From: a phage
DNA length: 64,000 nt
Strand: one strand, 5' to 3'
Assembly: GCA_014686905.1 (NCBI GenBank)
Contig: GCA_014686905.1_4093.1
Shown: positions 25,381 to 41,479 of the stretch, in pieces
Layout of the letters: each line of letters starts with the position of its first letter
How positions within the stretch are numbered: position 1 is the stretch's first letter
Notes under the pieces: generated by a model
Database searches by the model: none
Told to the model about the DNA's origin: nothing
What the model saw: the letters and a program-made list of their open reading frames with translations, nothing else
Program-made: the position numbers and the translations under genes

Positions 25381-26457
25381 TTAAACACAAGTAGACAGGG
25401 GAAGCTCCTAGTGAACAACCTTTATGTACAGGCGAATTGTTAAAATTCAGCCTGGACAAATGCGATCACTAGGATTCTCCCCAGGCTAAACCCCGTAATC
25501 ATAGGTAGTCATAAGTAATCATATATAAACATTTATATGAGCACCGTAGAATCACAGAATGATTATATATGATTCAGTACTGATTAGTATAGACAAGAAT
25601 GCTCAAGAATGCACGGGAAGGATTCAGTACTGATATGCCACTAAGTAGGCAGAGGAAGTCTGCCGTACTTTTTAGTTTCCAAGCTCCTTTTCCATTTTTC
25701 AAATTACATCAAATGTAATCAAAAGTAATCACGCAATGATTAGTACTGAATTATTACTTTCACCTTAATTTCAATTACCCCTTTACCCTTCGGGGTAAAA
25801 TTCAATTACCCCTTGAGGCTCCAGCAAAAAGTTGGTTAGTACTCCATCCTAAATCTCGATCCTAAAAATTTTGGAGTACCTATGAAATAAAAGTTGGATC
25901 TTCGAAAGTTGAAATTTACGTTGGGACGTTTATGATTTGTGGGATATAATGATGTTTGTAGTCGGGTAGTTCTCAAGAATATCAGTACTGAATAATGAAA
26001 GAAAGCTATTGACATTATGATTCAGTACTGTATAATGTTCTACATAGAGAGATGAGTTGCTGCGAACAATTCATTTACTCTATCTCCTGTCGTGAGACAG
26101 TACAGAAAAGATAGTTCCTCCTGTGGTGGTACATCTTTTTGAACCTCATATGAAAATCGTAATAACAGTACTGATATTAACAGAATGGTGTCAGTACTGA
26201 TTTTAATCTAAAGCATTATGCCACCAGCTTGTGCTGGTGGATTCCCTCTAACAGTATTCAGTACTACATGATGGTCTTCATCCTCCTAGGGTAACATAGT
26301 GAGGGCTATGATGGCAGTACTGAATACTCCCTTTCAAAAGATAGATCTATGGTATAGTACTGACGGATTTTGGGTGTAGTTACCCTGGATGGATTTTGGG
26401 CGTAGATATGTCTAGCCCTCCAGAAGTCTGGAAGTAAAGATGGCTATCCATCTAGAC

Positions 26458-26520
26458 GGCTAAACGGCTAGATGGCTGGATGGCTAGACGTTTGGACGGC
26501 TAAACGGCTAGATGGTTACA
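26458..26520. repeat. short tandem repeat unit ACGGCTAAACGGCTAGATGG (x2, with related GGCTGGATGGCTAGACG between)
   Basis: Direct reading of 26440-26545. Confidence 0.55.
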
Positions 26521-27161
26521 CGTCTGGAAGTATAGACGGCTAAATCAAAATTTTATTTTGTTTTTCCAATAGTTCCCCTACCGCGTGGGGATAGTTTCCC
26601 CGCAGTATCTGGCGTTAGATTTTTCTGAATCTGGAATCATTATCTTATAAACTGGGGGCAATGTCAACGACCTGGACGGATATTTTTAAAAATTTTTTCA
26701 GTACTGAATTTTGGGCGTAACTATGCACCCGGTGGGCTTGAGTCTTTCTCGACTTGATGGAACTATTATACAGTACTGGAAAAATAAAGCAATACCCTGG
26801 ATGAAAAAAGTTTTAATTAATTTGCTTGCCATCCTGGGCCGGACTATGGTACTATATTTCAGTACTGAGAAAGTGCGTTTACCTGCTAGGGTGCGGGAGT
26901 GTATCCTTTTTTTATATCTTGAATTTTGGACGGATCTTCCCACCCCCTGGGGTATCCGCTTTCTCGCGTCTATGTAGTAATTATACGCTTTTTCAGGATC
27001 AAGTCAATACCTAAAAACAAAATAATTGAAAATAATTTAACGCGTTTAAACGGCCCGTAACGCCCTGGAATGATTAGAATGGTGCAAATGTATAGCTTAG
27101 GTGTATTAATGCGTTAGAATGCGTCTGAGGCCGTTTTATGGGGTGTAGTAGTGATTTGGTT

Positions 27162-27252
27162 GATTCAGTACTGAATAATAGTACTCCTATATAGAAAGAT
27201 AGTTCCCCTGGATTGATTCAGTACTGAATAATAGTACTCCTATATAGAAAGA
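27162..27252. repeat. 38-bp direct repeat GATTCAGTACTGAATAATAGTACTCCTATATAGAAAGA (x2, 15-bp spacer)
   Basis: Identical copies at 27162-27199 and 27215-27252. Confidence 0.7.
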
Positions 27253-27283
27253 AAACTATTTTAAAAGTATTTGTAGAAAGTAC

Positions 27284-27311
27284 TTGCACCGTACTGATAA
27301 AAGCGTATAAT
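27284..27311 (+). promoter_or_regulatory. sigma70-like early-type promoter (TTGCAC, 16-bp spacer, TATAAT), representative of about 35 similar promoters in 27.3-45 kb
   Basis: TACTTGCA(A/C)...GCGTATAATGTTTTACATC recurs before most small genes in this region. Confidence 0.6.
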
Positions 27312-27325
27312 GTTTTACATCGAGA

Positions 27326-27342
27326 GCGGGAACACTTCCCGC
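27326..27342 (+). promoter_or_regulatory. conserved 5' leader stem-loop (GCGGGAA-CAC-TTCCCGC), representative of about 25 instances
   Basis: Stem-loop sits a few nt after the predicted start site (...TTTTACATC) and 10-20 nt before the SD; stem sequence varies between copies with compensatory changes. Confidence 0.55.
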
Positions 27343-27366
27343 TACACTTTAAGAGAGATTAATACG

Positions 27367-27729
27367 ATGGCAACTCAAATCACCAAAATTATTGCTAACC
27401 TGGTTAACTTCCGCGACGAGATGAAAGATCTTCCGGCGGCGACGGTTAAAACTCACATTGACGCATACCGCGAACTGATTAAAATGCTGCCGCTTAAGCG
27501 TGAACAATACGCCGCTACCGTGATGCTTGATGCGATGATCCATAAGATGATCGCCAGTGATTTGACGATGGTTTATCAGTATATGGGCGAAAATTTCGCG
27601 GTGTGTAGTAAGCCAGTACCAGGGATGGCAACAACTGAGGAATTGCACGGCTTAAACTTAAAACAAGATGCATGGGATAATATGCCTCGTTTCCTGGTAT
27701 GGGCTGACAGTGGCAAAATTTACAAATAA
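27367..27729 (+). CDS. hypothetical early protein
   Basis: Start moved to MATQITKI after SD AGAGAG (track ORF began inside promoter/leader). Confidence 0.6.
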   Translation: MATQITKIIANLVNFRDEMKDLPAATVKTHIDAYRELIKMLPLKREQYAATVMLDAMIHKMIASDLTMVYQYMGENFAVCSKPVPGMATTEELHGLNLKQDAWDNMPRFLVWADSGKIYK

Positions 27730-27824
27730 GTTTAATAAAGTACTTGCAAACTATGTTTAATGGCGTATAATGTTTTACATCAGGTGGGGAATAGTTCCCC
27801 ACTATATAAGAGGATTAAAAAAAA

Positions 27825-28064
27825 ATGGCTAAATCAAAAATGTTCTTAGGTCACAAAAACAAAACTCATTGGAATGTAAGCCTGTGGATTAATAACGATG
27901 AGGGATTGTATCGGTTGGCCCTGGACTTTATTGCCGCCAATACTAATCGCAATGATGCGGCCCGTCATATGATGTTATTTTTAGAACAGACTGGACAAGA
28001 TAAAACACCGGACGGATTCAAATATAGCACTACTGCGATCCGTGCGGCGATGGTTGGAATGTAA
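27825..28064 (+). CDS. hypothetical early protein
   Basis: Promoter plus leader hairpin GGTGGGGAATAGTTCCCCACT upstream; SD AGAGGA. Confidence 0.6.
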   Translation: MAKSKMFLGHKNKTHWNVSLWINNDEGLYRLALDFIAANTNRNDAARHMMLFLEQTGQDKTPDGFKYSTTAIRAAMVGM

Positions 28065-28150
28065 TAGAATTTATTTAAAGTACTATCATTTTTTTGCGAT
28101 AGTACTTTATAATAGTGTTTTATTCATACACCAACGATAAGGGCAACAGC

Positions 28151-28417
28151 ATGAATATTAAGTATTTTGCGACGCGTGAACAAGCTCGGATCGCCGCACG
28201 CCAGGACGGGGCAACGTTTAAAGATATGGGAGCGGGATCGGCAAGTGGTGAACGTTGGGCCATTGTAAAGCGTAGTACGGCCAGATCATTACAGTACTGG
28301 TTAGCGGCCTTAAAAAGTCCCGATAGTGTATCGCGTCGAGTGGTAGAAATAAAGCTCGACCGAAAGGGCAACCGCGTGACCGTGTACCGTACTAAAAAGA
28401 TTGCAGTACTTGAATAA
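28151..28417 (+). CDS. hypothetical early protein; paralog of 39568-39963
   Basis: MNIKYFATREQARIAARQDGATFKDMG...DRKGNRVTVYRTKK parallels MITKFYATREAARIVAREEGAAFKDMG...DRKGNRVTVYSKRR. Confidence 0.6.
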   Translation: MNIKYFATREQARIAARQDGATFKDMGAGSASGERWAIVKRSTARSLQYWLAALKSPDSVSRRVVEIKLDRKGNRVTVYRTKKIAVLE

Positions 28418-28504
28418 AAAGTACTTGCAAACTATGTTTAAAGGCGTATAATGTTTTACATCGAGAGCGGGAACTCTTCCCGCCTATAACCTGGAGTAAT
28501 AAAA

Positions 28505-28735
28505 ATGACTAATATGTATATGACTGAAGTTAAAACCGTAAAAGATACTACCACGAATAAAACTACTTACTTACAGCGGATCTGTGGTGTATGGCAACGT
28601 ATCAGCAAATCAAAGTACTTTAAATTAACATCATATGCAAACCGTTCTGATTCATTCAGTACTGAAATAAAAGGTAATAAAGTACACCAATACGGCACTT
28701 ATTATTATTACAGCCTGGACGCGATTGCAGTATAA
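28505..28735 (+). CDS. hypothetical early protein
   Basis: Promoter plus leader hairpin GCGGGAACTCTTCCCGCC upstream; SD GGAG. Confidence 0.55.
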   Translation: MTNMYMTEVKTVKDTTTNKTTYLQRICGVWQRISKSKYFKLTSYANRSDSFSTEIKGNKVHQYGTYYYYSLDAIAV

Positions 28736-28984
28736 GCAGTTTACAAATCTTTACAATTGCCGGTATTGACTTATTTTGTCAGTACTGGCATAATGTATTC
28801 ATTGGCAGATAAGCCGTAGCCCATAGGGTGCGGGAGTGTATCTATAGAAAAATTAGTTTAGTATAGTTACAATTGTGCACCCGGTGGGTTAGCTGTTGTC
28901 ATGGGGTATATTATGCCAGTACTTGATAATGCTGTCAATACTTTTTTTTACTATCCAGTACAGAAAACTATTTTTAAAAAGTAC

Positions 28985-29012
28985 TTGCAAACTATGTTTA
29001 AAGGCGTATAAT
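28985..29012 (+). promoter_or_regulatory. early-type promoter upstream of structured leader element
   Basis: TTGCAA, 16-bp spacer, TATAAT. Confidence 0.55.
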
Positions 29013-29018
29013 GTTTTA

Positions 29019-29096
29019 CATCAGGACGGGGAACGAAATAAGTAACTTCCCGTTAAGTAGCCCAGGAGTAAGGCACACGAAAAACTCCCCTGATAA
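29019..29096 (+). ncRNA. candidate small structured RNA / leader element between tandem promoters (copy 1)
   Basis: About 78 nt starting CAGGACGGGGAACG..., internal complementarity ACGGGGAA/TTCCCGT; near-identical copy at 38373-38450; no ORF. Confidence 0.3.
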
Positions 29097-29162
29097 AATA
29101 GTTTGACAAATGTTTTTAAAAGCGTATAATACTTACATCAACTACTGAATGAGGGTTATAAA

Positions 29163-29774
29163 ATGAAAACTATCACTACTACTACTTTCGTTATGGATTT
29201 TTCTGAATTGAACGCAGAACAAAAAACGTCAGCTATCGAACTGGTTCGGGAACGTGAAAAAAACTCAAACGACAATTATTTTTCTGAAAGTGAAATTGAA
29301 TACTATAAAGAAACAGTACTACCGGAATATGGCATTAATGACGCTGAAATACAATTCAGTGGTTTTTGGTCCCAGGGTGACGGTGCATCAATCAGTACTG
29401 ACCACGTTGACGCAGTGAAGTTTTTACGCAAGGTTAGAGCGTTAACTAAGTATCGCTCAATCCGTCACCTGCTGAATGAAGATGATTTGGCGATGAGTGT
29501 AAAGCGTTCTCACTCCCACTACTCGCATGAGAATACTGTAAGCGGGTACATTGAATCGGCTTACACTGATTTAACCGCAAAACAAGAAACGTTAGTTAAT
29601 GAGCTTGAGGAACTACTCACTGATACTATTCGTGAATTGTCCCGTAAGTTGTACCGTGATTTAGAGAATGCATATGAGGATCAATTCACTACTGAAAACA
29701 TTACGGCACTGATTGAGGGTAACGAATATCAATTCAATGTTATTGATGGCGTAGTAGAATCAATCGAATATTAA
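29163..29774 (+). CDS. hypothetical acidic protein
   Basis: 203-aa ORF; SD GAGGG; second promoter TTGACA...TATAAT at about 29103-29130. Confidence 0.65.
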   Translation: MKTITTTTFVMDFSELNAEQKTSAIELVREREKNSNDNYFSESEIEYYKETVLPEYGINDAEIQFSGFWSQGDGASISTDHVDAVKFLRKVRALTKYRSIRHLLNEDDLAMSVKRSHSHYSHENTVSGYIESAYTDLTAKQETLVNELEELLTDTIRELSRKLYRDLENAYEDQFTTENITALIEGNEYQFNVIDGVVESIEY

Positions 29775-29866
29775 TTCAAAAAGTACTGGACACTAAGCAA
29801 TAAAGGCGTATAATACTTTATATCGAGAGCGGGAATAGTTCCCGCTACTAATGAGGAATACTACAA

Positions 29867-30031
29867 ATGAATACTTTTACCTTCGCTCAATTGAACGCCC
29901 TGGATGTATTGTCTGATGCTTTGCGGGATGCAACTGAAAGCGGTTTATTTGACAATGTTGACATTCACCCTGATGTAATTAATAATTTTTGTGATGCTAT
30001 CGCAGAAGTACTGGAAGATCTAAAAAAATAA
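29867..30031 (+). CDS. hypothetical small protein (54 aa)
   Basis: Promoter plus leader hairpin GCGGGAATAGTTCCCGC then SD GAGGAA; hand-translated. Confidence 0.45.
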   Translation: MNTFTFAQLNALDVLSDALRDATESGLFDNVDIHPDVINNFCDAIAEVLEDLKK

Positions 30032-30119
30032 TAGAAAGTACTTGCAATTAGTTTTTAGTACTGTATAATAGTTTACATAGAGGGGAGAAATGGTTCTCCC
30101 TGGTAATGAGGAAAATAAA

Positions 30120-30341
30120 ATGGCTAATATCACTACTCTTTCTCAACTGGAAGCACTGGTTAAATCTATGCGGGAACATGCAGACAATATCGGCGTAAAA
30201 GATCCAGCCGTTTGCTTCTGCGACGAAATGAATGATGATACACTGGTAATAGCAGAAGTACAAGATATTTCTAACTATTCATCGCGTTACACTGGCGGCG
30301 TAGCAAATAAAGGTGACTTCTGTTTATACCTTACCAAATAA
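30120..30341 (+). CDS. hypothetical early protein
   Basis: Start moved to MANITTLSQ after SD GAGGAA; leader hairpin upstream. Confidence 0.55.
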   Translation: MANITTLSQLEALVKSMREHADNIGVKDPAVCFCDEMNDDTLVIAEVQDISNYSSRYTGGVANKGDFCLYLTK

Positions 30342-30346
30342 CAACG

Positions 30347-30376
30347 CGGGGAGATAATAACTCCCCGTTACTTTTT
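30347..30376 (+). terminator. intrinsic terminator-like hairpin
   Basis: CGGGGAG-ATAATAA-CTCCCCG followed by T-rich tract. Confidence 0.5.
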
Positions 30377-30585
30377 CAGTACTGAATCATTTAATAGACG
30401 GATCTCGGCACCCTGTGGGTTAGTGACTGTATCGTCTTTATGTAGTAATTATGCCAGTACTGGATGCAGTTGTCAACAATTATTTTTCAAATACTTTTTA
30501 TTAAAATACTTGCTATTAGTTTTTAAACGCGTATAATGTTTTGCATAGGGGGAGCGGTTCCCCCTGGTAACTAAGGAATAAGAAA

Positions 30586-30819
30586 ATGCTTGAACAAATC
30601 AAATCAACGTCTGCTAATGTAACGGGAACGGTATCACACTTTATTGGTGATGAATCGCGGGGCGTTCCCTATTGTGCTGTACATGTAAACACTGAGGGTA
30701 ACTACTGGTTTACGGTTTACGGATCATATTCATTTGGACGGCCAGGGCATCAAAAAATTCTGGATAAAGTACAACCAACGGGTAAAAATATCACTGCCGA
30801 AATGTTTTATAAAAACTAA
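30586..30819 (+). CDS. hypothetical early protein
   Basis: Promoter, leader hairpin GGGGGAGCGGTTCCCCC, SD AAGGAA. Confidence 0.6.
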   Translation: MLEQIKSTSANVTGTVSHFIGDESRGVPYCAVHVNTEGNYWFTVYGSYSFGRPGHQKILDKVQPTGKNITAEMFYKN

Positions 30820-30906
30820 TAAAATACTTGATAATAGTTTTTAGTACTGTATAATATTTTACATAGCACGGGGGAGCGGTTCCCCCTGGTAACTAAGGAT
30901 AATCAA

Positions 30907-31206
30907 ATGAAAATTGCAATCATCGCCCTGGCTTTATCTGTTTCCTCTTTCTCTGTTAATGCGTCGTTAGATGTACCTAGTGAAAAATTCATTCAGTGCA
31001 CCGTAGCGATGACCGATGAAAGTACTGGCGAGATTGTTTTAAAGGATTTAGAGATCCAGCCAGAAGCATTTAAAAACGGCCCGTTCCATGAAGAAGACGA
31101 AAACGGTAGCACAACAATTTATTATGATGCAAGTACTAAACGCGGTTCGGTCACTGTAATGGATACAGAGAAAGTAACACACACAGGAGTAATTAACTGT
31201 TTATAA
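30907..31206 (+). CDS. secreted/periplasmic small protein (signal peptide)
   Basis: N-terminus MKIAIIALALSVSSFSVNA-SLD has n/h/c regions and AxA-like cleavage site. Confidence 0.6.
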   Translation: MKIAIIALALSVSSFSVNASLDVPSEKFIQCTVAMTDESTGEIVLKDLEIQPEAFKNGPFHEEDENGSTTIYYDASTKRGSVTVMDTEKVTHTGVINCL

Positions 31207-31212
31207 ATCACT

Positions 31213-31240
31213 AGCCCACTCATACAGTGGGCTTTTTTAT
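31213..31240 (+). terminator. intrinsic terminator
   Basis: AGCCCACT-CATAC-AGTGGGCT followed by TTTTTT. Confidence 0.7.
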
Positions 31241-31434
31241 TTTTGTAGTACTGCATACTTTGAAAATAGTTTTAAGAAAGTAGTTGACATTACCGCAGAA
31301 AAGCGTAGAATGTATTACATCAAGACGGGGAGCACTAAGTAGACCGCCAGTAAGTCGAACGAAAAACTGGACACGTCGAGAAAACTTTGATACACTATCT
31401 AACGTAAACTAAACTTTAATTGAGGAATTATATA

Positions 31435-31917
31435 ATGGCTAATGTAAAATCATTCATCAAAGCACTGGTAGCAAATGAAACTAACGTAGCGGCAGAGATC
31501 CTGGCAGAACTGGATAACGATACCATGAAAGCAGTACGCAACAATTTTAACATTGCGTACAGTGAAGCTAAAGAACTGCAAGCCAAAAAGGTAGCAGAAC
31601 TGGAAGAACAGAAAAAAGCCCGTGAAGCAGAACTACAAGCAACAATTGAAAGTATCCAGTCGGCGGTGTCTGGATTGGATCTGGAAGTGGTTGTTGAAAT
31701 GGCACATAAAGCCCTGGCGGTTAAGTACGGTGAAGATAAGCCGGAATCTAAGCCTAAAAAATGGATTCAGGAACGCGTAGCGGTAGTACTTGATAACGGT
31801 GAAGAACATTTGATTCCTGTACGCGGTAACTGCATTGCGGTAGTACTGGACGCTATCAAAGAAAGCGGTATGACTCGCGAGGAATGGATCGAAGCTCATC
31901 GCAAAGTTGAAGCATAA
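31435..31917 (+). CDS. hypothetical protein (Lys/Glu/Ala-rich, probably helical)
   Basis: Start moved to MANVKSF after SD GAGGAA; long 5' leader. Confidence 0.6.
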   Translation: MANVKSFIKALVANETNVAAEILAELDNDTMKAVRNNFNIAYSEAKELQAKKVAELEEQKKAREAELQATIESIQSAVSGLDLEVVVEMAHKALAVKYGEDKPESKPKKWIQERVAVVLDNGEEHLIPVRGNCIAVVLDAIKESGMTREEWIEAHRKVEA

Positions 31918-31937
31918 CAATTAAAGTACTGAATCAA

Positions 31938-31966
31938 TAGCCCACCTTAAACAGTGGGCTTTTTTG
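31938..31966 (+). terminator. intrinsic terminator
   Basis: AGCCCACC-TTAAA-CAGTGGGCT followed by TTTTTT. Confidence 0.65.
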
Positions 31967-32201
31967 TGTCTATAGTATTCCAGTCCACTAGCACCGCCTA
32001 GAATCGATTCTAACGCATTAAACTGATTATCTGATACATCGCCCTAGCTGGTGGCGTTAAGGTCGTTAGAAAGCGATTGAGAGTGTTTAAAGTATTTTGC
32101 AAAAAGTAATAAAAAGTACTTGCATGATTAAGAGATTAGCGTATAATGTTTTACATCGAAAGGGGAAACGGTTCTCCTTCCAAATCAAAGGAATCAAAAC
32201 A

Positions 32202-32429
32202 ATGGCTATTATCATTACTCGCGTATCTGGTACTACTGGCAATTCTTCTACTGTTGCAGTCATTACTAACAAGGCAGGTGCGGAATTGCAAAATGCAATG
32301 AATACCTGGGCCGTTAATGAGTTCGGTCAGTGGGCAAGTGTAGCATACATTGAAACCTATCAAGTGCCGACCATTAGTTTAACGGATCTTGGTGTGGAAC
32401 GTATCCTTTGCTTGGATGAATTAAATTAA
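32202..32429 (+). CDS. hypothetical early protein
   Basis: Start moved to MAIIITRVSG after SD AAGGAA; promoter plus leader hairpin upstream. Confidence 0.55.
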   Translation: MAIIITRVSGTTGNSSTVAVITNKAGAELQNAMNTWAVNEFGQWASVAYIETYQVPTISLTDLGVERILCLDELN

Positions 32430-32514
32430 AAAAGTACTTGCAAAGTAAATCGAATAAAGTATAATACATTACATCAAGGGGAGAAATGATTCTCCCCACT
32501 ACAAGGAAACTAAT

Positions 32515-32658
32515 ATGAAAACTTGTCAATGTGGTAAAAAATCTATTACTGGTTTAAAGCGGGGCGTTGCTCTTTGCCAGTACCATTATAATTTACAAGT
32601 ATGGGGTAAAGAATGGGCCGACCAGGTGGAAGCAATTAAGAAAGCAAAAAGTAAGTAA
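32515..32658 (+). CDS. small Cys-containing protein (47 aa)
   Basis: Promoter plus leader hairpin GGGGAGAAATGATTCTCCCC; SD AAGGAA; hand-translated. Confidence 0.4.
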   Translation: MKTCQCGKKSITGLKRGVALCQYHYNLQVWGKEWADQVEAIKKAKSK

Positions 32659-32670
32659 AAATATTATCAC

Positions 32671-32708
32671 AGTACTATTGACATAGTTTGATAGTACTGG
32701 CATAATAG
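32671..32708 (+). promoter_or_regulatory. promoter module class 2 with flanking inverted repeat (AGTACTAT-TGACATAGTTTG-ATAGTACT, CATAAT), copy 1 of 3
   Basis: TTGACA, 17-bp spacer, CATAAT; near-identical modules at 35408-35446 and 43114-43150. Confidence 0.55.
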
Positions 32709-32747
32709 ATTTTATCAAGACAACATATTAATTTAAGGAATACTAAA

Positions 32748-33071
32748 ATGGCTAAAACTATCATTAACACCGTTTCCCTGGCTGCAATCCGTGCAATCAA
32801 TGTTGACGGTAAACGTTGGACTGATTCATATGGCAATACTTATCATTCTTGTCATGTAAGCGTCGAACTGGATAACGGTTTGAATGTTCTGGCGGTTGAA
32901 TCATTTACTTATGGCTATGAAGATGCATATCAACAAACGGCGTTAGATCTATTAAAGGAATCAGTAGACGGGCTTAATACTGATGAAACCTCCCTTACTC
33001 GTTTGTGCAATGATCTTAATATCCCGTTGCATTGTACTGTACAGAATGTTAAACGCAAAAAAGATCTTTAA
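32748..33071 (+). CDS. hypothetical protein; paralog of 39149-39472
   Basis: Shared motifs RWTDSxGNTYHSC, TFTYGY, VKRKKD. Confidence 0.65.
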   Translation: MAKTIINTVSLAAIRAINVDGKRWTDSYGNTYHSCHVSVELDNGLNVLAVESFTYGYEDAYQQTALDLLKESVDGLNTDETSLTRLCNDLNIPLHCTVQNVKRKKDL

Positions 33072-33151
33072 TTAGCTTTACTTTATGCAGATACTTTGAT
33101 ATAGTGTCTGCATAGGGGAAAGAAATTAAATTAACTTAAGAGGATCGTATA

Positions 33152-33421
33152 ATGAAAAATATCAGTACTTTAATCGATGCAGGTACACATGTTCGGCGGT
33201 CTATGGTTGCAACCAGTACTACAAAACAAGTAGCGAGCGGTTATCTTGTATTTGTGCACGATGGTAAACTCCTGGAACGTTCAATCAATTTTGATGTTAA
33301 AAACAATTGCCGTTTTATTATCTTTAAGCGTGAACAATATAAAATTGATTTACCAGCAAAGCCCATTAGCGGGGCGTACAACGTGCAATCATTGTTTGAG
33401 CGTCAACCTTACACCTATTAA
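33152..33421 (+). CDS. hypothetical early protein
   Basis: SD AAGAGGA upstream. Confidence 0.55.
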   Translation: MKNISTLIDAGTHVRRSMVATSTTKQVASGYLVFVHDGKLLERSINFDVKNNCRFIIFKREQYKIDLPAKPISGAYNVQSLFERQPYTY

Positions 33422-33472
33422 TCAAAACATCGTTAGCGGTCGATTTAGGCCGCTTGTATTGGGGATTATACC

Positions 33473-33643
33473 ATGAACGTTAATCAAGTACTGAATGAGA
33501 TCGAAAGCATCATTAAACCAATGAAACGCATTGATGCTATGTTAACACCGGAAGAATGCCGCCTTTATGAGCGTTACAGTGTGGAACAAGCCCAGGAAAT
33601 GGCCCGTATCCGTCCGGTTGCCAGTACTGATAAGGCGGCGTAA
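33473..33643 (+). CDS. hypothetical small protein (56 aa)
   Basis: Hand-translated; stop overlaps next start (TAATATG). Confidence 0.45.
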   Translation: MNVNQVLNEIESIIKPMKRIDAMLTPEECRLYERYSVEQAQEMARIRPVASTDKAA

Positions 33644-33644
33644 T

Positions 33645-33854
33645 ATGCTTACTGTACAGGATAAGATCGACATCTTAAAGGTTAATATGTATGTGATTGA
33701 TGCCGTACCTGGTAAAGTATTTGCATACGATGATTCTAATCGCAGTCCGTTTTATTGCAGTCATGTAGTTGGATACGTGCCGTTGGCGTATGTTATAGAA
33801 AGAGTGGTTGATGCAGCATACAAACATTTTTTAGAAAATAATACTTGCAATTAG
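33645..33854 (+). CDS. hypothetical small protein
   Basis: Start moved to MLTVQDKIDIL; translationally coupled to upstream ORF. Confidence 0.5.
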   Translation: MLTVQDKIDILKVNMYVIDAVPGKVFAYDDSNRSPFYCSHVVGYVPLAYVIERVVDAAYKHFLENNTCN

Positions 33855-33924
33855 TTTTCAGTACTGTATAATGATTTACATCGAGAGCGGGAATAGTTCC
33901 CGCCTCACTTTTAAGGAATATGAA

Positions 33925-34071
33925 ATGAAAGCATCAAAAAAGAGTAATACTAAGAAAGCATGTTCACCTTTCGCTGGGGTATTCCCTTTACGTTTCGTTG
34001 ATGAAGTGGTTTCCTACCCGCCTGGCCTTACTCCTGAGATGGTAGAAAGTTTGCGTAAATCTAAAAAATAG
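33925..34071 (+). CDS. hypothetical small basic protein (48 aa)
   Basis: Start moved to MKASKKSN after leader hairpin and SD AAGGAA. Confidence 0.45.
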   Translation: MKASKKSNTKKACSPFAGVFPLRFVDEVVSYPPGLTPEMVESLRKSKK

Positions 34072-34152
34072 TACTTGCAATTAGTTTTTAAACGCGTATA
34101 ATGTTTTACATGAAGGGGAGAAATGATTCTCCCCAATAACAGGAGAAACAAA

Positions 34153-34305
34153 ATGAAACAATATAATGCTCGGTTTGATGTTACTATCGGTAACGGCAAA
34201 GGTCAATTCTCTTTCAGTACTCGCAAAAGTTATACAGAAAACTTCCTGCGTAATTGTGCACTGACCGCCGCTCAAATTAAACATTATTTTCAGGCTAAAA
34301 AATGA
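34153..34305 (+). CDS. hypothetical small protein (50 aa)
   Basis: Start moved to MKQYNARFD after SD AGGAGA; leader hairpin upstream. Confidence 0.45.
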   Translation: MKQYNARFDVTIGNGKGQFSFSTRKSYTENFLRNCALTAAQIKHYFQAKK

Positions 34306-34391
34306 AATCATTTGCTTACTATAGTTCTGCGGTGATCGGTGCATTGATCGCGGCGTTGTTAGTAACCTATCTATTCTTTATGGTGATTTAA
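34302..34391 (+). CDS. tiny membrane peptide (29 aa)
   Basis: ATGA overlap with upstream stop; single hydrophobic helix. Confidence 0.35.
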   Translation: MKSFAYYSSAVIGALIAALLVTYLFFMVI

Positions 34392-34535
34392 ATGAATCCA
34401 ACAGGCTTAAATTATAAAAGTTGTTCGGCGTTTACGAAAGCAAATAAAGCGAATGCACGTAAAGCGAAAGTACAGGAGTACATCAAGCAAGGCATGACGC
34501 GAAAGGCGGCGATTCTAAAAGCTAAAAATAAATGA
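34392..34535 (+). CDS. small basic protein (47 aa)
   Basis: Abuts previous stop; Lys/Ala-rich. Confidence 0.4.
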   Translation: MNPTGLNYKSCSAFTKANKANARKAKVQEYIKQGMTRKAAILKAKNK

Positions 34536-34537
34536 AA

Positions 34538-34575
34538 AAAGTGGTTGACTCCGGTCAGCCATTTTGCTATTATAT
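34538..34575 (+). terminator. composite hairpin terminator plus promoter (TGGTTGAC-TCCG-GTCAGCCA, TTTTGC, TATTAT)
   Basis: Same architecture as 1157-1204; recurs at 38211, 41480, 43738. Confidence 0.55.
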
Positions 34576-34599
34576 ATTCATTGAGAGATAGCTCACTAG

Positions 34600-34624
34600 C
34601 CCACAGGGTGCATAAGTGTATCTA
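34600..34624 (+). promoter_or_regulatory. conserved intergenic motif CCCACAGGGTGCATAAGTGTATCT
   Basis: Near-identical motif at 38269-38292, 41542-41565, 43797-43820; related copies near 36270 and 28810; reverse-orientation core near 30410 and 26727. Confidence 0.5.
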
Positions 34625-34745
34625 TTATATAAGTATTGAGTACTGAAAACTATTTTTAAAAAGTACTTGCAAACTATCTCAATAAGCGTATAATGTTTTA
34701 CATCGAAAGGGGAAACGGTTTCCCCTGGTAATAAGGAAACAAATC

Positions 34746-35087
34746 ATGACTATCTCAATTGCTCAATCTAACTTTGAAAATGAAATCATCGCCCAGGCAC
34801 TGCGTTTAAATGATGGTCGGGCCGAAATTAATTACGGTTTCAATTCAGGCGGTTGCGAAAACTATCAGTACTTTGTAACGGCTGATGGCGGTGTCCTGGG
34901 TATCAATACAGTTATTGTAAACATCCAAAAAATTAATTTCAATGATCCAGACGATAGCCAGTTTTACATCACTGGCGTAGACGTGAACTATGAGGATGAC
35001 TCACTAACTGATGATCACACTGGCGAGCGGTTAGAAAGTGCATACGGTGAAGATGATTATCAGTCCGGTCCAGAAGATTTCGAATAA
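34746..35087 (+). CDS. hypothetical acidic protein
   Basis: Promoter plus leader hairpin AGGGGAAACGGTTTCCCCT; SD AAGGAAAC. Confidence 0.6.
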   Translation: MTISIAQSNFENEIIAQALRLNDGRAEINYGFNSGGCENYQYFVTADGGVLGINTVIVNIQKINFNDPDDSQFYITGVDVNYEDDSLTDDHTGERLESAYGEDDYQSGPEDFE

Positions 35088-35182
35088 TATAAAAAATAGT
35101 TTGACAATAGATTATAGTACTGTATAATAGTTTACATCAAGGGGAGAAAAACTTCTCCCCACTAACAGAGAGAGAAAACAAA

Positions 35183-35395
35183 ATGGCTAATATCCGGTCG
35201 AAATTAAAAAATGCAAAACAAGTTTTATTTTCAGATCATGAATACTTTAATAAAGATATTACAGGAGTTACAAGTATCAAGGAAGTAAAAGAAAAAACCG
35301 GCGTTTTGTGTGATGTGCGATTAGTTGGAACATTTGGGAATAACGTGCTATATCGCTGCGGTGATTACAATTTTACACTGACTATCATTAACTAA
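35183..35395 (+). CDS. hypothetical early protein
   Basis: TTGACA promoter, leader hairpin GGGGAGAAAAACTTCTCCCC, SD AGAGAGAGAA. Confidence 0.55.
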   Translation: MANIRSKLKNAKQVLFSDHEYFNKDITGVTSIKEVKEKTGVLCDVRLVGTFGNNVLYRCGDYNFTLTIIN

Positions 35396-35407
35396 AAATA
35401 TTATCAC

Positions 35408-35446
35408 AGTACTATTGACATAGTTTGATAGTACTGACATAATAAC
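35408..35446 (+). promoter_or_regulatory. promoter module class 2 with flanking inverted repeat, copy 2 of 3
   Basis: AGTACTATTGACATAGTTTGATAGTACTGACATAATAAC. Confidence 0.55.
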
Positions 35447-35478
35447 TTTTATCAACTACACTACTAAGGAATTAAAAA

Positions 35479-35658
35479 ATGGCTATCATCGCAAAAACTG
35501 AAATCGTTGGTCTGGATTCTATCATCATGACGTTTGAAGATCAAAAAGGTATGTATGTAGTTTCCTATGGTGATTATGTTCGGGAGTATGAAACGGTAGA
35601 CGAAGCCTTTGAAAGTTATATTCGCCAGGTGAATAAAGCATACGATGACTACCGCTAA
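35479..35658 (+). CDS. hypothetical small protein (59 aa)
   Basis: SD AAGGAA; hand-translated MAIIAKTEIVGLDS... Confidence 0.45.
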   Translation: MAIIAKTEIVGLDSIIMTFEDQKGMYVVSYGDYVREYETVDEAFESYIRQVNKAYDDYR

Positions 35659-35757
35659 AATATATTACCAGTACTATTAAATCTATTGACAACGTTTGAT
35701 AGTACTGTATAATAAGTTTTATAAACAGTAGTTAACTTAACCTAAGAGAGAAACAAA

Positions 35758-35901
35758 ATGATCGCACTGGATTCATTCATCGACGCAGTACTGGCAAAAA
35801 CTGGCGAGGATCTGACCGCAGAACAATACGCGATGATCGAGCAATGTCAGCAAAACGGTAAATCGGTGAAAGATACTGTTAAGATTATCCGCAAGATGTA
35901 A
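35758..35901 (+). CDS. hypothetical small protein (47 aa)
   Basis: SD AAGAGAGAAAC; followed by hairpin. Confidence 0.45.
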   Translation: MIALDSFIDAVLAKTGEDLTAEQYAMIEQCQQNGKSVKDTVKIIRKM

Positions 35902-35907
35902 TATTAT

Positions 35908-35936
35908 AGCCCACTGGTTAACGCTGGTGGGCTTTA
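35908..35936 (+). terminator. terminator-like hairpin
   Basis: AGCCCAC-TGGTTAACGCTG-GTGGGCT, weak T tract. Confidence 0.45.
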
Positions 35937-36006
35937 ATCATTTACCCTATACAATGCCAGTACTAAACCGTTTATCTCATTAGAATGCGTTACAGGACGT
36001 TTAACA

Positions 36007-36204
36007 ATGATTAGCATGAAATCAGTACAAAAACAAATAGAAACATTATCAAAAATTAAACGTAAACAATACTCCTTAGAATATACAATCAATGGTAACT
36101 ATCATCTAATGAAAGAAAATAATTTTATAGTCATTGATGAATCATTGCAAATCATTAGTATAGTACTGAAAGCATTAATCAATGACAGAAAAAAATTAAA
36201 ATAA
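36007..36204 (+). CDS. hypothetical small protein
   Basis: 65-aa ORF; weak SD. Confidence 0.45.
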   Translation: MISMKSVQKQIETLSKIKRKQYSLEYTINGNYHLMKENNFIVIDESLQIISIVLKALINDRKKLK

Positions 36205-36295
36205 TTGTTGACATACAATGCCAGTACTGGCATAATACTTACATCAAGACGAGAACGTCACCAACCCATAGGGTGCACAAATGTAACTATATAAT

Positions 36296-36375
36296 ATCGA
36301 TCAATAAATGATCAAAAAAGTACTGGATCAATTTAGCATAAGGCGTATAATTCTGATCAATTCTTGATCAAAGGC
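36296..36375. repeat. cluster of five GATCAA (three as TGATCAA) repeats within 73 bp, overlapping a TATAAT box
   Basis: GATCAA at 36299, 36310, 36326, 36355, 36366. Confidence 0.55.
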
Positions 36376-36532
36376 AATAAACGTAGTTGAAATTATATAG
36401 AAAGTACAAAGGCGTTACCATTCGTGGTAATGCTGGGGAATATGTAGTATCATACGGTTTGAATAAAATCAGTACTAGTAGTATAATCGTAGCATTGCAG
36501 TACTATAGTATTTTTATAATGAGGTTAAAATA

Positions 36533-36790
36533 ATGGCTGTAGGATTTGCGAAGGACGGGGCCGAACAAGACGAGATTAACGCAGTGATTCAGGCCGCCGT
36601 AAACCACGCTAGAAAGCAAATTAACGCACAAATAGAATCACTGGTACATTGCCTCGACTGCGGCGATATAATCCCTGAGAAACGACGCCAGGCCGTTAAG
36701 GGATGTAAGTACTGCATAACTTGCCAGGAGGATCATGATAGTACTTTTAAACGTCCCCCGCGTAATTGTTGGCATAGATCTATGAGATAA
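36533..36790 (+). CDS. DksA/TraR-family C4 zinc-finger protein
   Basis: CLDCGDIIPEKRRQAVKGCKYCITC: two CxxC pairs with typical spacing, small size. Confidence 0.65.
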   Translation: MAVGFAKDGAEQDEINAVIQAAVNHARKQINAQIESLVHCLDCGDIIPEKRRQAVKGCKYCITCQEDHDSTFKRPPRNCWHRSMR

Positions 36791-36853
36791 AAAGTATTGA
36801 CAGTACTGAAAGATAGTGTATAATATTTTATATCTTAACTGAGGATTGAAATC

Positions 36854-37210
36854 ATGGGAATACAACATATCACGCGTACTACTGACAATGGCGAGATCAC
36901 TGGCTATCAAGTACAGGGCAAAGTAGCACAATTGCAGTACTGGTTTGTTAAACGTGGAATCATTGCACCGGATCTTGATTATGACCGTGTAGCGTTTATT
37001 GATTCTCTTTATGTTGATCCTGATAGTCGGGGCAATGGTGAAGGTAACGAATTAATGAATGCCTTTATTGATGCCGCCGATGATTCAGATTGTATCATTT
37101 TAGAATGCGATACAGGAGAAGATAACGCCTTCAATCTTAAAGAATGGTACGAAGGTTTCGGATTCGAGGTACTGATCGATAGTGAATATCCTATCATGAT
37201 TTTATCATAG
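36854..37210 (+). CDS. putative GNAT-type acetyltransferase-like protein
   Basis: LYVDPDSRGNGEGNELMNAF resembles the GNAT acetyl-CoA-binding loop; weak. Confidence 0.4.
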   Translation: MGIQHITRTTDNGEITGYQVQGKVAQLQYWFVKRGIIAPDLDYDRVAFIDSLYVDPDSRGNGEGNELMNAFIDAADDSDCIILECDTGEDNAFNLKEWYEGFGFEVLIDSEYPIMILS

Positions 37211-37288
37211 TACTTGCATTTAGTTTTCAGTACTGTTATAGTACTTACATCAAGGGGAAACATCTTCCCCTACTAAGAGGAAATAAAA

Positions 37289-37477
37289 ATGGAAAACTTA
37301 TCAAGTATTTTAGTACAAGATGATTTCGGTAATCCTGGAAGTGCTATCATTGTTCGGGGTAATAAAGCAACGTTTGTTATTGCTGGTGGACCTGTACAGC
37401 GTAGCATTAAAAATAATGCTGTTACCATTAATAATGTACGCTATCGCTTAGATAAAGAATTGATTCATAAACTTTAA
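37289..37477 (+). CDS. hypothetical early protein
   Basis: Promoter, leader hairpin GGGGAAACATCTTCCCC, SD AGAGGAAA. Confidence 0.55.
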   Translation: MENLSSILVQDDFGNPGSAIIVRGNKATFVIAGGPVQRSIKNNAVTINNVRYRLDKELIHKL

Positions 37478-37561
37478 AAAGTATTTGACAATAGATTATA
37501 GTACTGTATAATAAGTTACATGAAGGGGTGAAATGATTCTCCCCACTAAGAGGAAAGAAAA

Positions 37562-37774
37562 ATGCAAGGTCAACTAATCGTTCGTAAATGGTCTGATACT
37601 AACGAAAAACCGTGGGATGTACAATACATCGGACCGGATGGGGTATCACGTTATCAGCCTGGCGTAACGCATAGTACTGAGCAATTCGCAAACGCTCACC
37701 GCGAACGCCTGTTAGAATCCATGAAACAGGGATTCTGTGAAAAATTCATTCAAGATCATTGGCTGAAAGATTAA
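37562..37774 (+). CDS. hypothetical early protein
   Basis: TTGACA promoter, leader hairpin, SD AGAGGAAAG. Confidence 0.55.
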   Translation: MQGQLIVRKWSDTNEKPWDVQYIGPDGVSRYQPGVTHSTEQFANAHRERLLESMKQGFCEKFIQDHWLKD

Positions 37775-37791
37775 TATAAGGAGTACAGCTT

Positions 37792-37884
37792 ATGCAAATG
37801 AATCCGATGATTATTGTTTTAGCTGTACTTATGATCATTCATGCAATAGTAGAAGTATTAACGCAATCAGGAGTAATAAAATGA
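37792..37884 (+). CDS. tiny membrane peptide (30 aa)
   Basis: SD AAGGAG; single hydrophobic helix. Confidence 0.35.
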   Translation: MQMNPMIIVLAVLMIIHAIVEVLTQSGVIK

Positions 37885-38054
37885 TTCAAGTAGAATTATC
37901 AGTACTGAAAGATCTGTTTTATCGGTTAGGTACTACTGGCGAGTATCCTAAAAGTGATACCGCAAAACTTTTTGTATCACTCGACTTATGGCAACGCGAA
38001 CAATTAGTAATGTCCTGGCGTAAAGGTAAAGCAGATAGCGAGGTGAAAGCATGA
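37881..38054 (+). CDS. hypothetical small protein (57 aa)
   Basis: ATGA overlap with upstream peptide. Confidence 0.45.
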   Translation: MIQVELSVLKDLFYRLGTTGEYPKSDTAKLFVSLDLWQREQLVMSWRKGKADSEVKA

Positions 38055-38200
38055 AAGAATTCTTATTCGAAGTAGTGTTTCAAGGTGTCGGTAGTAACCA
38101 ACTGATTCGCTCAAGTGGTTACAATGTTAACCAGGCATGGAATAACATTAAACAAATGTACCCGAACGCTATCACCTATCGCAACCCGAAACAAGTTTAA
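38051..38200 (+). CDS. hypothetical small protein (49 aa)
   Basis: ATGA overlap; followed by composite terminator element. Confidence 0.45.
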   Translation: MKEFLFEVVFQGVGSNQLIRSSGYNVNQAWNNIKQMYPNAITYRNPKQV

Positions 38201-38210
38201 AAATAATTGA

Positions 38211-38250
38211 AAAAGGGATTGACTCCGGTCAGTCCCTTTGCTATTATATA
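38211..38250 (+). terminator. composite hairpin terminator plus promoter (GGGATTGAC-TCCG-GTCAGTCCC, TATTAT)
   Basis: Same architecture as 1157-1204. Confidence 0.55.
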
Positions 38251-38372
38251 CGCATAGAAACAAATCAGCCCACAGGGTGCATAAATGTATCTATTGTTTG
38301 CTGGTGGCTAGTACTGAAAACTATTTTTAAAAAAGTACTTGCATTGTACTTAGAATCAAGTATAATGTTTTA

Positions 38373-38450
38373 CATCAGGACGGGGAACGAAACAAGTAAC
38401 CCCGTTAAGTAGTCCAGGAGTAAGACATAAGAAAACCTCCCCTGATAAAA
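38373..38450 (+). ncRNA. candidate small structured RNA / leader element between tandem promoters (copy 2)
   Basis: Near-identical to 29019-29096; bracketed by two promoters. Confidence 0.3.
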
Positions 38451-38515
38451 TAGTTTGACAATAGAAAGTAAACGAGTATAATACTTACATCAACCACTGA
38501 TAAGGAAACATTAAA

Positions 38516-38791
38516 ATGCGGATTCTACTGACAGCTAACGAAATCGAACAAGTACTGACTACTAACCTGGAAGACTGGAAACGTGAAGCAGATATCCAGG
38601 CGGTTCAACGGCTTAACGATGAGTTAACGCCGGATGACTTAAGCAAGATTGTAGATCCTCAATTCTACGAAGATATCCACGACACCGCGTTAAGCGTCGA
38701 GGATGTACTAGATAAGCACTACATTGATATTGATTTGCAGGTTTACGGTCGTAAAAACTTTATCACTATTCACGACATTTACAATAATTAA
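38516..38791 (+). CDS. hypothetical acidic protein
   Basis: SD AAGGAAAC; 91-aa ORF. Confidence 0.6.
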   Translation: MRILLTANEIEQVLTTNLEDWKREADIQAVQRLNDELTPDDLSKIVDPQFYEDIHDTALSVEDVLDKHYIDIDLQVYGRKNFITIHDIYNN

Positions 38792-38877
38792 GTATTGACA
38801 AAGTATCTTAGTACTGTATAATAGTTTACATCGAGAGGGGGAATGGTTCCCCTCCTAACAAAGAGAGAGAAATAAAA

Positions 38878-39060
38878 ATGGCTAAATGCACTATCTGTAA
38901 GAAAGAAATCGTATTAGTTCCAAGTGCCCGTGAACGTGCCGCTCGGTTCGGTGGCAAACCGTCAGACTATACAAAAATGTTTACTGTCCATGCAGCTTGC
39001 CAGGTAGCAAAACGTTCACAAGAAAGCGTAGAATTAATGCGTAAACTTTCCAAAAAATAA
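38878..39060 (+). CDS. hypothetical small basic protein
   Basis: TTGACA promoter, leader hairpin GAGGGGGAATGGTTCCCCTCC, SD AGAGAGAGA. Confidence 0.55.
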   Translation: MAKCTICKKEIVLVPSARERAARFGGKPSDYTKMFTVHAACQVAKRSQESVELMRKLSKK

Positions 39061-39148
39061 GTATTGACAAAGTATCTTAGTACTGTATAATAGTTTACAT
39101 CAAGTGAGGGGAAACGGTTCCCCTCCTAACAAAGAGAGAGAAATAAAA

Positions 39149-39472
39149 ATGGCTATGATCCTTGCCCAGAAAGTAGAACTGAAAATTGTAACCTCCTTTG
39201 ACATTAAAGTTAATCGGTGGACTGATTCACACGGCAATACTTACCACTCTTGCTACGTGTCTGCGTTAATTGGTGATCGTTGGGAAGACCTGGGACATGA
39301 AACCTTTACATACGGTTACGGCACACAAGGCGAATACACGGGCTTGGAGATCATTAAAGAAACCGTTATAGGTTTCAACCCGAAAGAAAAAGTTATTCAC
39401 CGCATCGAAAAAGAGATTAACAAAGAAATAACAGTTCGATACAACGATGTAAAACGTAAGAAAGACATGTAA
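39149..39472 (+). CDS. hypothetical protein; paralog of 32748-33071
   Basis: Start moved to MAMILAQK; shared RWTDSHGNTYHSC...TFTYGY...VKRKKD; promoter plus leader duplicated from the 38878 unit. Confidence 0.65.
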   Translation: MAMILAQKVELKIVTSFDIKVNRWTDSHGNTYHSCYVSALIGDRWEDLGHETFTYGYGTQGEYTGLEIIKETVIGFNPKEKVIHRIEKEINKEITVRYNDVKRKKDM

Positions 39473-39567
39473 TAGAATCCATTTAAAGTACTATTTGACA
39501 TTGCCCAGATAGTACTTTATAATAGACTCTAACTTGTAGTACTAACTCAACTAATAGGATGTATACC

Positions 39568-39963: not shown

Positions 39964-39985
39964 TAACTTGCAGTACTAACAACAC

Positions 39986-40010
39986 GGCGGGATCAGTTCC
40001 CGCCTTTTTT
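39986..40010 (+). terminator. intrinsic terminator
   Basis: GGCGGGA-TCAGT-TCCCGCC followed by TTTTTT. Confidence 0.7.
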
Positions 40011-40025
40011 ATAGGATAAACTAAA

Positions 40026-40280: not shown

Positions 40281-40333
40281 CAGTACTCAATTGTTTTAGT
40301 ATTATGTACACATACCAACACGGGAGAAACAAA

Positions 40334-41468: not shown

Positions 41469-41479
41469 AAAAGATTAAA

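Follow-up and report, generated by a model that had tools for sequence, protein, structure and literature searches.

The operators of the methionine repressor MetJ are textbook objects, in which two to five short boxes stand before methionine genes. The 64,000-bp stretch of phage DNA analysed here (GenBank assembly GCA_014686905.1, contig GCA_014686905.1_4093.1; "the window" throughout) carries a far longer run of such boxes, 17 contiguous 8-bp units in a non-coding block, and this run lies inside the direct terminal repeat (DTR) close to the physical end of the virion DNA. The base sequence identifies the repeat unit as a met box (canonical AGACGTCT), the site of the host repressor MetJ, and binding of MetJ that depends on S-adenosylmethionine (SAM) is predicted. 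A met box is a known kind of site; the length of the array, its carrier and its position are new. Whether the 17 MetJ-type boxes near the genome end would be coated by host MetJ-SAM during infection appears to us an evenly balanced question.

Searches of the literature returned nothing relevant on MetJ or met boxes in phages. The array goes unmentioned in papers on phages fEgEco12, CBB, XbC2, Sharanji and T5, and we found no description of the repeat for Asteriusvirus or AhSzq-1, nor any of arrays of 13-28 boxes that lie in the terminal repeats of virulent phages and control no met gene. If MetJ binds, the phage would be exploiting a metabolite-sensing repressor of its host through cis DNA alone. 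In addition, the array offers a concrete candidate for the occupant of the injection-stop region in relatives of phage T5, a question open since the 1980s, and the first assignable element of the large non-coding DTR edge in Rak2-like jumbo phages.

A single array of contiguous 8-bp units

The first-pass annotation of this DNA, made from the letters alone, had described a tandem repeat at 26458-26520 with two full copies, related partial units between and beside them, and further repeats as flanks. This repeat is real and far beyond chance, with its first copy beginning at 26456, 2 bp from the start then given. The two copies are a 20-mer (ACGGCTAAACGGCTAGATGG) at 26456-26475 and 26496-26515, offset by exactly 40 bp. 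The related sequence between them is GGCTGGATGGCTAGACG, and TCTGGAAGT stands on both sides (26427-26435 and 26523-26531, offset by 96 bp, or 12 x 8). The unit and extent need revision, however: the 20-mers and the TCTGGAAGT "flanks" all belong, in the same phase, to a single array, whose true unit is 8 bp and whose true extent is 26406-26545.

26406..26545, no strand assigned: met-box-type array of 17 contiguous 8-bp units; 15 of the 17 exceed the published per-box threshold, and the summed score is 115 bits
26438..26541, no strand assigned: array core of 13 unbroken boxes, each over the MetJ threshold, 97.8 bits; both 20-mers lie inside it

In the met-box register (26406-26541) the units read ATATGTCT agccctcc AGAAGTCT ggaagtaa AGATGGCT ATCCATCT AGACGGCT AAACGGCT AGATGGCT GGATGGCT AGACGTTT GGACGGCT AAACGGCT AGATGGTT ACACGTCT GGAAGTAT AGACGGCT, where lower case (agccctcc, ggaagtaa) marks units under the per-box threshold. 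They follow each other head to tail with no spacers and no gaps under the consensus AGAYGKCT, and they are heterogeneous rather than identical copies. Tandem Repeats Finder reports a period of 8 with 11.4 copies, and the periods of 32 and 40 that it also gives are multiples of 8.

The array stands out clearly within the window. Over 15 array units, 89 of 120 positions match AGACGTCT; the next-best place in the window reaches 49, and 200 shuffles give no more than 55. All seven matches to the two-unit pattern RRAYGKYT fall within the array, with 0.03 expected. The tetramer CTAG is under-represented in the window, with 90 copies where base composition predicts about 207; the 140-bp array holds five of them. 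The local rise in GC content that had been noted is confirmed, with 0.46 in the array against about 0.33-0.36 in its flanks, which makes it a GC-rich island in a genome of 35% GC. As a single strand the array folds better than its shuffles (z = -3.65). The non-coding setting holds as well, since the array sits within a block poor in open reading frames (ORFs) at 25381-27309. These data support its description as a conserved, repeated array of protein-binding type in a non-coding block; the met-box nature of its unit had been missed in the first-pass annotation.

Agreement with MetJ specificity

When shifted by four bases, the repeat unit reads AGACGGCT, AAACGGCT, AGATGGCT and so on, which is the met box. 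The match to MetJ specificity was assessed with a published matrix, a reverse scan and a comparison of frequency matrices, none of which was trained on this window. The information matrix and its thresholds come from Augustus and Spicer 2011 (PMC3228920, Table 3); each box has to score no less than one quarter of the bits of the consensus, which are 12.58, and the site as a whole no less than that full value. Applied to the 64-kb window, the matrix finds a single large site, the 13 contiguous boxes at 26438-26541 with 97.8 bits in total and 3.8-10.7 bits each, and the sole other match consists of two boxes with 14.3 bits. The same matrix gives 2-4 boxes and 15-31 bits on the E. coli K-12 operators of metJ/B, metA, metF, metR/E, metN, metC and metK. 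The array thus scores better and runs longer than any of the E. coli met operators scored.

For the reverse scan, a matrix built from phage units only (seven phage groups) was run over both strands of 22.4 kb of E. coli K-12 DNA. The seven known MetJ operator regions take ranks 1-7 (24.9 to 11.3 bits), and rank 8 drops to 6.7 bits. The frequency matrix of the phage units correlates with that of natural met boxes at r = 0.90 in register, compared with -0.28 to 0.02 in the seven other registers, and base preferences agree at seven of the eight positions, the exception being position 6. At the level of a single operator, GGACGGCTAAACGGCTAGATG in the window and GGACGTCTAAACGGATAGATG in the metF operator are identical at 19 of 21 positions.

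Position in the terminal repeat and conservation among jumbo phages

The block is 95-98% identical to Asteriusvirus jumbo coliphages such as PBECO4, 121Q, G17 and phAPEC6, and this identity marks the window as DNA of an Asteriusvirus jumbo phage (Rak2-like). Its terminal repeat was located by alignment.

25644..45222, plus strand: direct terminal repeat, 19.6 kb, from alignment with vB_Ec-M-J (annotated DTR 1-21525)

The left boundary at 25644 corresponds to the physical left end of the virion DNA, and the right boundary falls at 45222/45223 in the vB_Ec-M-J alignment. In the related phage fEgEco12 the termini were determined with PhageTerm and confirmed by restriction digests, giving a DTR of 20,993 bp, and its record begins at the point that matches the left boundary in the window. 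The whole DTR is contained in the window, with the array 762-901 bp in from its left edge; in related records that begin at the physical genome end, the array is found at about 690-1050. Because both boundaries lie inside the window, the repeat must be collapsed in the assembly, or else attached there to the end of the unique region.

The first-pass annotation had raised the possible absence of the repeat from related genomes and proposed a comparison of copy number. The array is in fact present in every related genome checked, and its length varies by whole units from 12 to 24: SHEFM2K has 12 units, G17 has 16, this window 17, vB_Ec-M-J 18, 121Q and UE-S1 19, and EJP2 24. Arrays of Asteriusvirus differ by whole 8-bp units only, and their boxes are MetJ-compatible in all of these phages. 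In Mimasvirus (XbC2, CBB) and Eneladusvirus (BF, pEa_SNUABM_12) the DTR begins 650-800 bp before an equivalent array, which is set among syntenic conserved non-coding boxes; the DTR is 17,581 bp in XbC2 (PhageTerm) and 22,456 bp in CBB. Array position and MetJ-type base preferences are therefore kept over three jumbo genera with a genome similarity of only about 23-29%.

Arrays in unrelated phages

Searches seeded with the array also led to T5-like Demerecviridae outside the T5 subfamily (PR1, PSTCR5, Thalassavirus, pVp-1, JSF10/12, AhSzq-1 and PVo5) and to the T7-like Ermolevavirus (PGT2 and phiKT). The numbers of boxes are 9 in the Providencia phage PR1 (Priunavirus), 9 in PGT2, 15 in Thalassavirus Pontus and 28 in Shenzhenvirus AhSzq-1. 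At the loci compared, the T5-like and T7-like carriers have no DNA in common with the jumbo block beyond the array, and no common ORFs. The same array was found in none of 72,556 plasmids or 5,426 E. coli genomes, and a scan of viral contigs returned true met-box arrays mixed with unrelated perfect 8-bp microsatellites.

Wherever the termini are known, the array is within the terminal repeat. PR1 has its array at about 9620-9691 of an LTR spanning 1-10461, 770-840 bp from the inner end. PGT2 has a DTR of only 260 bp (0.6% of its genome), with the array at 38-109. By our own estimate, all three arrays would land in a DTR at random with a probability of roughly 0.056 x 0.09 x 0.006, a figure to be read with the concentration of non-coding DNA in these repeats.

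In T5, the corresponding slot holds the DRC/palindrome block, a candidate injection-stop region (Davison, bioRxiv 10.1101/866236; record AY587007). At the PR1 locus (locus positions 2880-3100) the array has a pair of DnaA boxes (TGTGGATAA) on one side and a match to the T5 7.9% nick site (CCCTCTGCGC) directly on the other, so that sites for two host DNA-binding proteins would lie side by side in a candidate injection-stop region. In Pontus and AhSzq-1, too, the array adjoins a T5-like nick/DRD-like sequence. A T5-type injection stop is expected in a non-coding repeat block close inside the inner boundary of the terminal repeat that enters first; the arrays of the T5-like carriers are so placed, and the window array is at a DTR edge.

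We also considered whether T5's own repeats at the equivalent position could be read as Fur boxes. Only 14-15 of 19 positions matched, within the range of shuffles, and the notion of interchangeable host-repressor arrays as a general rule was dropped with it.

Hosts and possible binding proteins

MetJ is confined to Enterobacterales, Pasteurellales, Vibrionales, Aeromonadales and Alteromonadales (PMC3228920). The hosts of the array-bearing phage records belong to these orders in 95 of 96 cases, the exception being XbC2 of Xanthomonas, and the E. coli host of the present phage encodes metJ. XaC1 is another Xanthomonas isolate, more distant among the Rak2-like phages; its left end is recognisably similar, and its first 40 kb contain no array.

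A MetJ homologue encoded by phages was sought with tblastn in 50,697 records, which returned only three records of host DNA or mislabelled origin. Pfam and PHROG scans of 72 small ORFs between 21 and 47 kb of the window found no family of the ribbon-helix-helix (RHH), MetJ or Arc type and no partition NTPase; the only matches among these ORFs were DUF7249, ParE-like and GNAT, together with weak kinase matches.

Features of the surrounding block and window

The array shares its block with several other elements.

25381..27309, no strand assigned: ORF-poor block; within it are the array, the DTR boundary, hairpins, promoters and 12 copies of the palindrome CAGTACTG
25498..25531, plus strand: GTAATCA-type repeats of 10-bp period to the left of the terminal cut site, separate from the array
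25708..25731, plus strand: second group of GTAATCA-type repeats, likewise of 10-bp period, located 64-87 bp inside the DTR; in vB_Ec-M-J it is longer by one 10-bp unit
26009..26036, plus strand: perfect sigma-70 consensus promoter TTGACA-16-TATAAT (12/12, by consensus match only), facing the array rightward from about 400 bp upstream; its spacer contains CAGTACTG
26220..26240, no strand assigned: hairpin GCCACCAGC-ttgt-GCTGGTGG in which each strand bears a Chi site; it precedes the array by about 170 bp and is 577 bp away from the physical left end
26562..26586, plus strand: conserved box TTTTCCAATAGTTCCCCTACCGCGT just 3' of the array; Eneladusvirus (BF, fHe-Yen9-04) has it too and, judged by eye, so does Mimasvirus
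26639..26667, minus strand: promoter-like site TTGACA-17-GATAAT (11/12, by consensus match only), facing the array leftward from about 95 bp

Together, the two promoter-like sites would direct converging transcription onto the array. The GTAATCA repeats flank the cut at 25644 and are a plausible candidate for the terminase recognition element, a better one than the array.

Three non-coding boxes (25838-25881, 26562-26586 and 26920-26984) keep their order across Asteriusvirus, Mimasvirus and Eneladusvirus. The first is an inverted repeat (AGTACTCCA...TGGAGTACT), the second is the TTTTCCAATAGTTCCCCTACCGCGT box, and the third, 65 bp long, includes a CCCCCTGGGG hairpin. The window holds 54 copies of the palindromic octamer CAGTACTG, against 0.75 expected, and 12 of them lie in 25575-27226. 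The octamer often appears as TTCAGTACTGAA, both in intergenic gaps and in the interior of ORFs, and a hairpin at 26166-26199 has one copy as each of its arms. Its role could be that of a promoter element, a modification site or an operator for a regulator of the phage.

Chi (GCTGGTGG) is found 12 times in the window (0.55 expected), on the plus strand at 26233, 32047, 35923, 37382, 38300, 40648, 42055, 43632 and 43855 and on the minus strand at 26221, 14508 and 14763. The nine plus-strand copies are inside the DTR and have the orientation for RecBCD entering from the physical right end, whereas the minus-strand copy at 26221, 577 bp from the left end, is oriented for entry from the left. The terminal repeat thus looks built to survive RecBCD. 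An order of genome end, Chi and array as a general design was tried and rejected: it is true for Asteriusvirus, XbC2 and PR1 and fails in CBB, BF, Pontus and PGT2.

Structured RNAs were sought with Rfam at permissive thresholds over 24.5-28.5 kb, which gave a single chance-level match outside the array, and no tRNA was found. Farther away, about eleven ORFs of similar length (380-440 aa), which are probably paralogues, follow one another on the minus strand at 8163-21072 in otherwise plus-strand surroundings. The small ORFs of 21157-47418 include multi-copy families, with phrog_11711 in 12 and phrog_4148 in 8 of the 72 scanned. Gaps between genes measure roughly 80-100 bp inside the DTR, and packing is tight after about 45.9 kb.

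Discussion

How would a phage use a long run of met boxes at its genome end? Once the DNA is inside an enterobacterial cell, SAM-loaded MetJ dimers, which are RHH proteins, would bind one per box and polymerize cooperatively over roughly 140 bp, as they do on the two to five boxes of met operators, and each DTR copy would thereby bear a long protein-coated segment. We infer MetJ binding in vivo, and all that would follow from it, from the DNA sequence. Because the array is linked to the DTR in every lineage, we rank first a role in cis at the terminal repeat, as a nucleoprotein block or an architectural element tied to terminal-repeat biology. Such a block may stall RNA polymerase arriving from the two converging promoters, or RecBCD, or DNA translocation, and it would parallel the injection-stop repeat block of T5 and the paused-polymerase signal of the T7 concatemer junction. 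Our second preference is a sink: as genomes multiply, each with two arrays, MetJ may be drawn away from its operators, and the synthesis of methionine and SAM would be derepressed.

Several observations weigh against host MetJ as the binder. At box position 6 the phage units have G in 51% and T in 48%, compared with T in 87% and G in about 10% of natural met boxes (Kullback-Leibler divergence 0.80 bits), and this excess of G makes the unit asymmetric and could indicate another binder. The array overlaps no promoter, the nearest promoter-like sites being about 95 and 400 bp off, and neither the ORF list nor the Pfam scan of the 72 ORFs shows a met gene near it; with no promoter overlapped and no met gene under its control, the array falls outside the usual meaning of an operator. 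T5 and its close relatives infect E. coli without a met-box array. XbC2, which comes from Xanthomonas vesicatoria and hence from an order without MetJ, retains a good array. Intergenic 8-bp tandem repeats of the same family also occur beside ordinary metabolic genes in Gemmatimonadales, Anaerolineae, actinomycetes and other bacteria without MetJ, so such arrays can arise and persist without it; among the matches listed, these are mostly near-perfect microsatellites in GC-rich DNA and uninformative on distribution. Finally, the three lineages of phages represent no more than 3-4 independent events, which leaves the correlation with hosts statistically weak.

The bacterial repeats (for example contigs L129 7228-7323 and L125 4323-4378) are dispersed and often at contig ends, with units such as GGACGGCT, GGATGGCT and AGACGGCT.

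If not MetJ, the reader of the 8-bp units could be a phage protein, most likely another RHH or similar small dimer, forming a centromere-like or plug-like complex in the terminal repeat that, for example, holds or stalls the DNA while it is ejected or packaged. In that case the units would look like met boxes through common RHH geometry rather than through use of host MetJ. The G excess and the strand asymmetry of the unit, both unlike natural met boxes, fit this explanation, as do the array of XbC2 from a MetJ-less genus and the constant location within terminal repeats, which suits a phage-specific function in cis. Other RHH proteins such as ParG and omega likewise polymerize on arrays with a 7-8-bp period, and the ORF screen covered the DTR region of the window, most of the roughly 350-kb genome lying outside it. 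However, no RHH, Arc or MetJ family was seen among the 72 ORFs in and beside the DTR, the 50,697 phage records held no MetJ homologue, and the restriction of hosts to MetJ-bearing orders would be left unexplained. Three lineages that share only the array would each need a binder of identical specificity, and one shared host factor is simpler than three such proteins, which favours host MetJ; we consider a phage-encoded binder unlikely. It is quite unlikely, in our judgement, that the array serves DNA-end transactions with no sequence-specific repressor at all, either as a recognition or pause signal for terminase and packaging or as an injection stop of T5 type, acting through the structure of its quasi-palindromic units or through the packaging or ejection machinery. 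A site for packaging proteins had been among the initial suggestions, and the location inside the DTR, which holds in all three lineages, even in the 260-bp DTR of PGT2, is in keeping with it. In PR1, Pontus and AhSzq-1 the array is directly left of a sequence like the T5 7.9% nick site and DRD repeat, at the slot of the T5 DRC/palindrome block, and in PR1 it also follows a DnaA-box cluster. The single strand of the window array folds better than shuffles. A terminase site is expected at or adjoining the cleavage site, whereas the Asteriusvirus cut at 25644 is 762-901 bp from the array and has its own flanking 10-bp repeats, and the terminases of T5-like, T7-like and Rak2-like phages are unrelated, so a common reading of one 8-mer is not expected. 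Mixed G and T at position 6 weakens the palindrome and leaves modest cruciform potential, and a comparison of T5 ORFs from 1-12 kb with the window ORFs gave no match to the T5 proteins A1 and A2.

A neutral 8-bp minisatellite, expanded by slippage in non-coding DNA and without function, would account for the whole-unit variation among close relatives and for similar 8-bp repeats in MetJ-less bacteria and perfect microsatellites in other viral contigs. We regard it as improbable, given that the units are heterogeneous, that position and MetJ-type preferences are retained over three jumbo genera, that the array recurs inside the DTR of unrelated phages, that it forms a GC-rich island, and that it is absent from the plasmids and E. 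coli genomes searched. Most improbable of all is the initial reading as iterons of a replication origin, where an initiator would bind the repeats and open the adjoining AT-rich DNA. GC skew has a negative sign between 6 kb and 26 kb and a positive one from there on, with the change inside the block; genes run on the plus strand from 21.2 kb already (21.2-25.4 kb, then from 27.3 kb), so gene orientation does not explain the switch. There is also a strong promoter upstream and an AT-rich run of roughly 30 bp (26542-26572) directly downstream. Yet the skew changes at the junction of the unique region and the DTR, which may be all that it reflects and makes the signal ambiguous for an origin. The contiguous 8-bp period differs from iterons of 17-22 bp in helical phase, no DnaA box occurs within 4 kb of the array or indeed between 21322 and 37736, and neither an initiator-like ORF nearby nor a replication family among the 72 ORFs was found. 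Furthermore, the T5-like arrays are in the DNA of the first transfer step, whereas T5 origins map to the middle of the genome.

Beyond the single genome, three unrelated lineages of DTR phages, namely Rak2-like jumbo myoviruses, Demerecviridae outside the T5 subfamily and T7-like Ermolevavirus, may have independently placed MetJ "super-operators" in their terminal repeats, as a nucleoprotein building block of the genome end or as a DNA sponge. We put this forward tentatively, as a possibility that leans towards the doubtful side. In the first of these uses, the MetJ complex would be part of the long-sought injection-stop signal in T5 relatives; in either, host takeover would be exerted through non-coding DNA alone.

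Comparison with known systems

The closest relatives of the array are the MetJ operators of E. coli (metA, metBL/metJ, metC, metE/metR, metF, metK and metNIQ), which likewise consist of contiguous 8-bp tandem units with CTAG at the box junctions. They have 2-5 boxes, whereas the array has 13-17 and its AhSzq-1 counterpart up to 28. Unlike them, the array resides in the terminal repeat of a virulent phage, overlaps no promoter, has no link to a methionine gene and has G as common as T at position 6.

Two phage systems have comparable blocks near their termini. T5 Repeat Region 3, the candidate iss, resembles the window block as a large, non-coding, repeat-dense region a few hundred bp from a terminal-repeat boundary. 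It has no met-box array, the jumbo block has no DnaA boxes, and no A1 or A2 homologue was found in the window; we know of no two-step injection in Rak2-like phages. T7 carries short repeats, SRL and SRR, next to its terminal repeat, and has a polymerase pause site in the concatemer junction. The likeness would be one of short tandem-like repeats at or in a DTR and of a stalled transcription complex that acts as a processing signal, comparable to a protein roadblock; the T7 unit is of the CCTAAAG type and no host repressor is known to be implicated.

Among plasmid systems, the centromeres bound by RHH proteins include the 7-bp heptads of omega in pSM19035, the parH site of TP228 with ParG boxes every 8 bp, and ParR/parC. 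Like the array, they have many contiguous short units, and there one RHH dimer per unit coats the DNA cooperatively in a helical manner. The array differs in that its unit matches MetJ and that the 72 ORFs scanned hold no partition ATPase or RHH gene. Origin iterons are also direct repeats in non-coding DNA, and they bind protein; the array is set apart from them by its contiguous 8-bp units without helical phasing and by the lack of a rep gene or DnaA boxes found nearby.

Under the sink model, the array would resemble titration loci such as E. coli datA, which titrates DnaA. Synthetic decoy arrays, too, sequester transcription factors (PMC3322331). In each case a cluster of sites sequesters a regulator rather than controlling an adjacent gene. 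Unlike these, the array is carried by an invading virus and, with titration as its candidate role, would be aimed at a metabolic repressor of the host.

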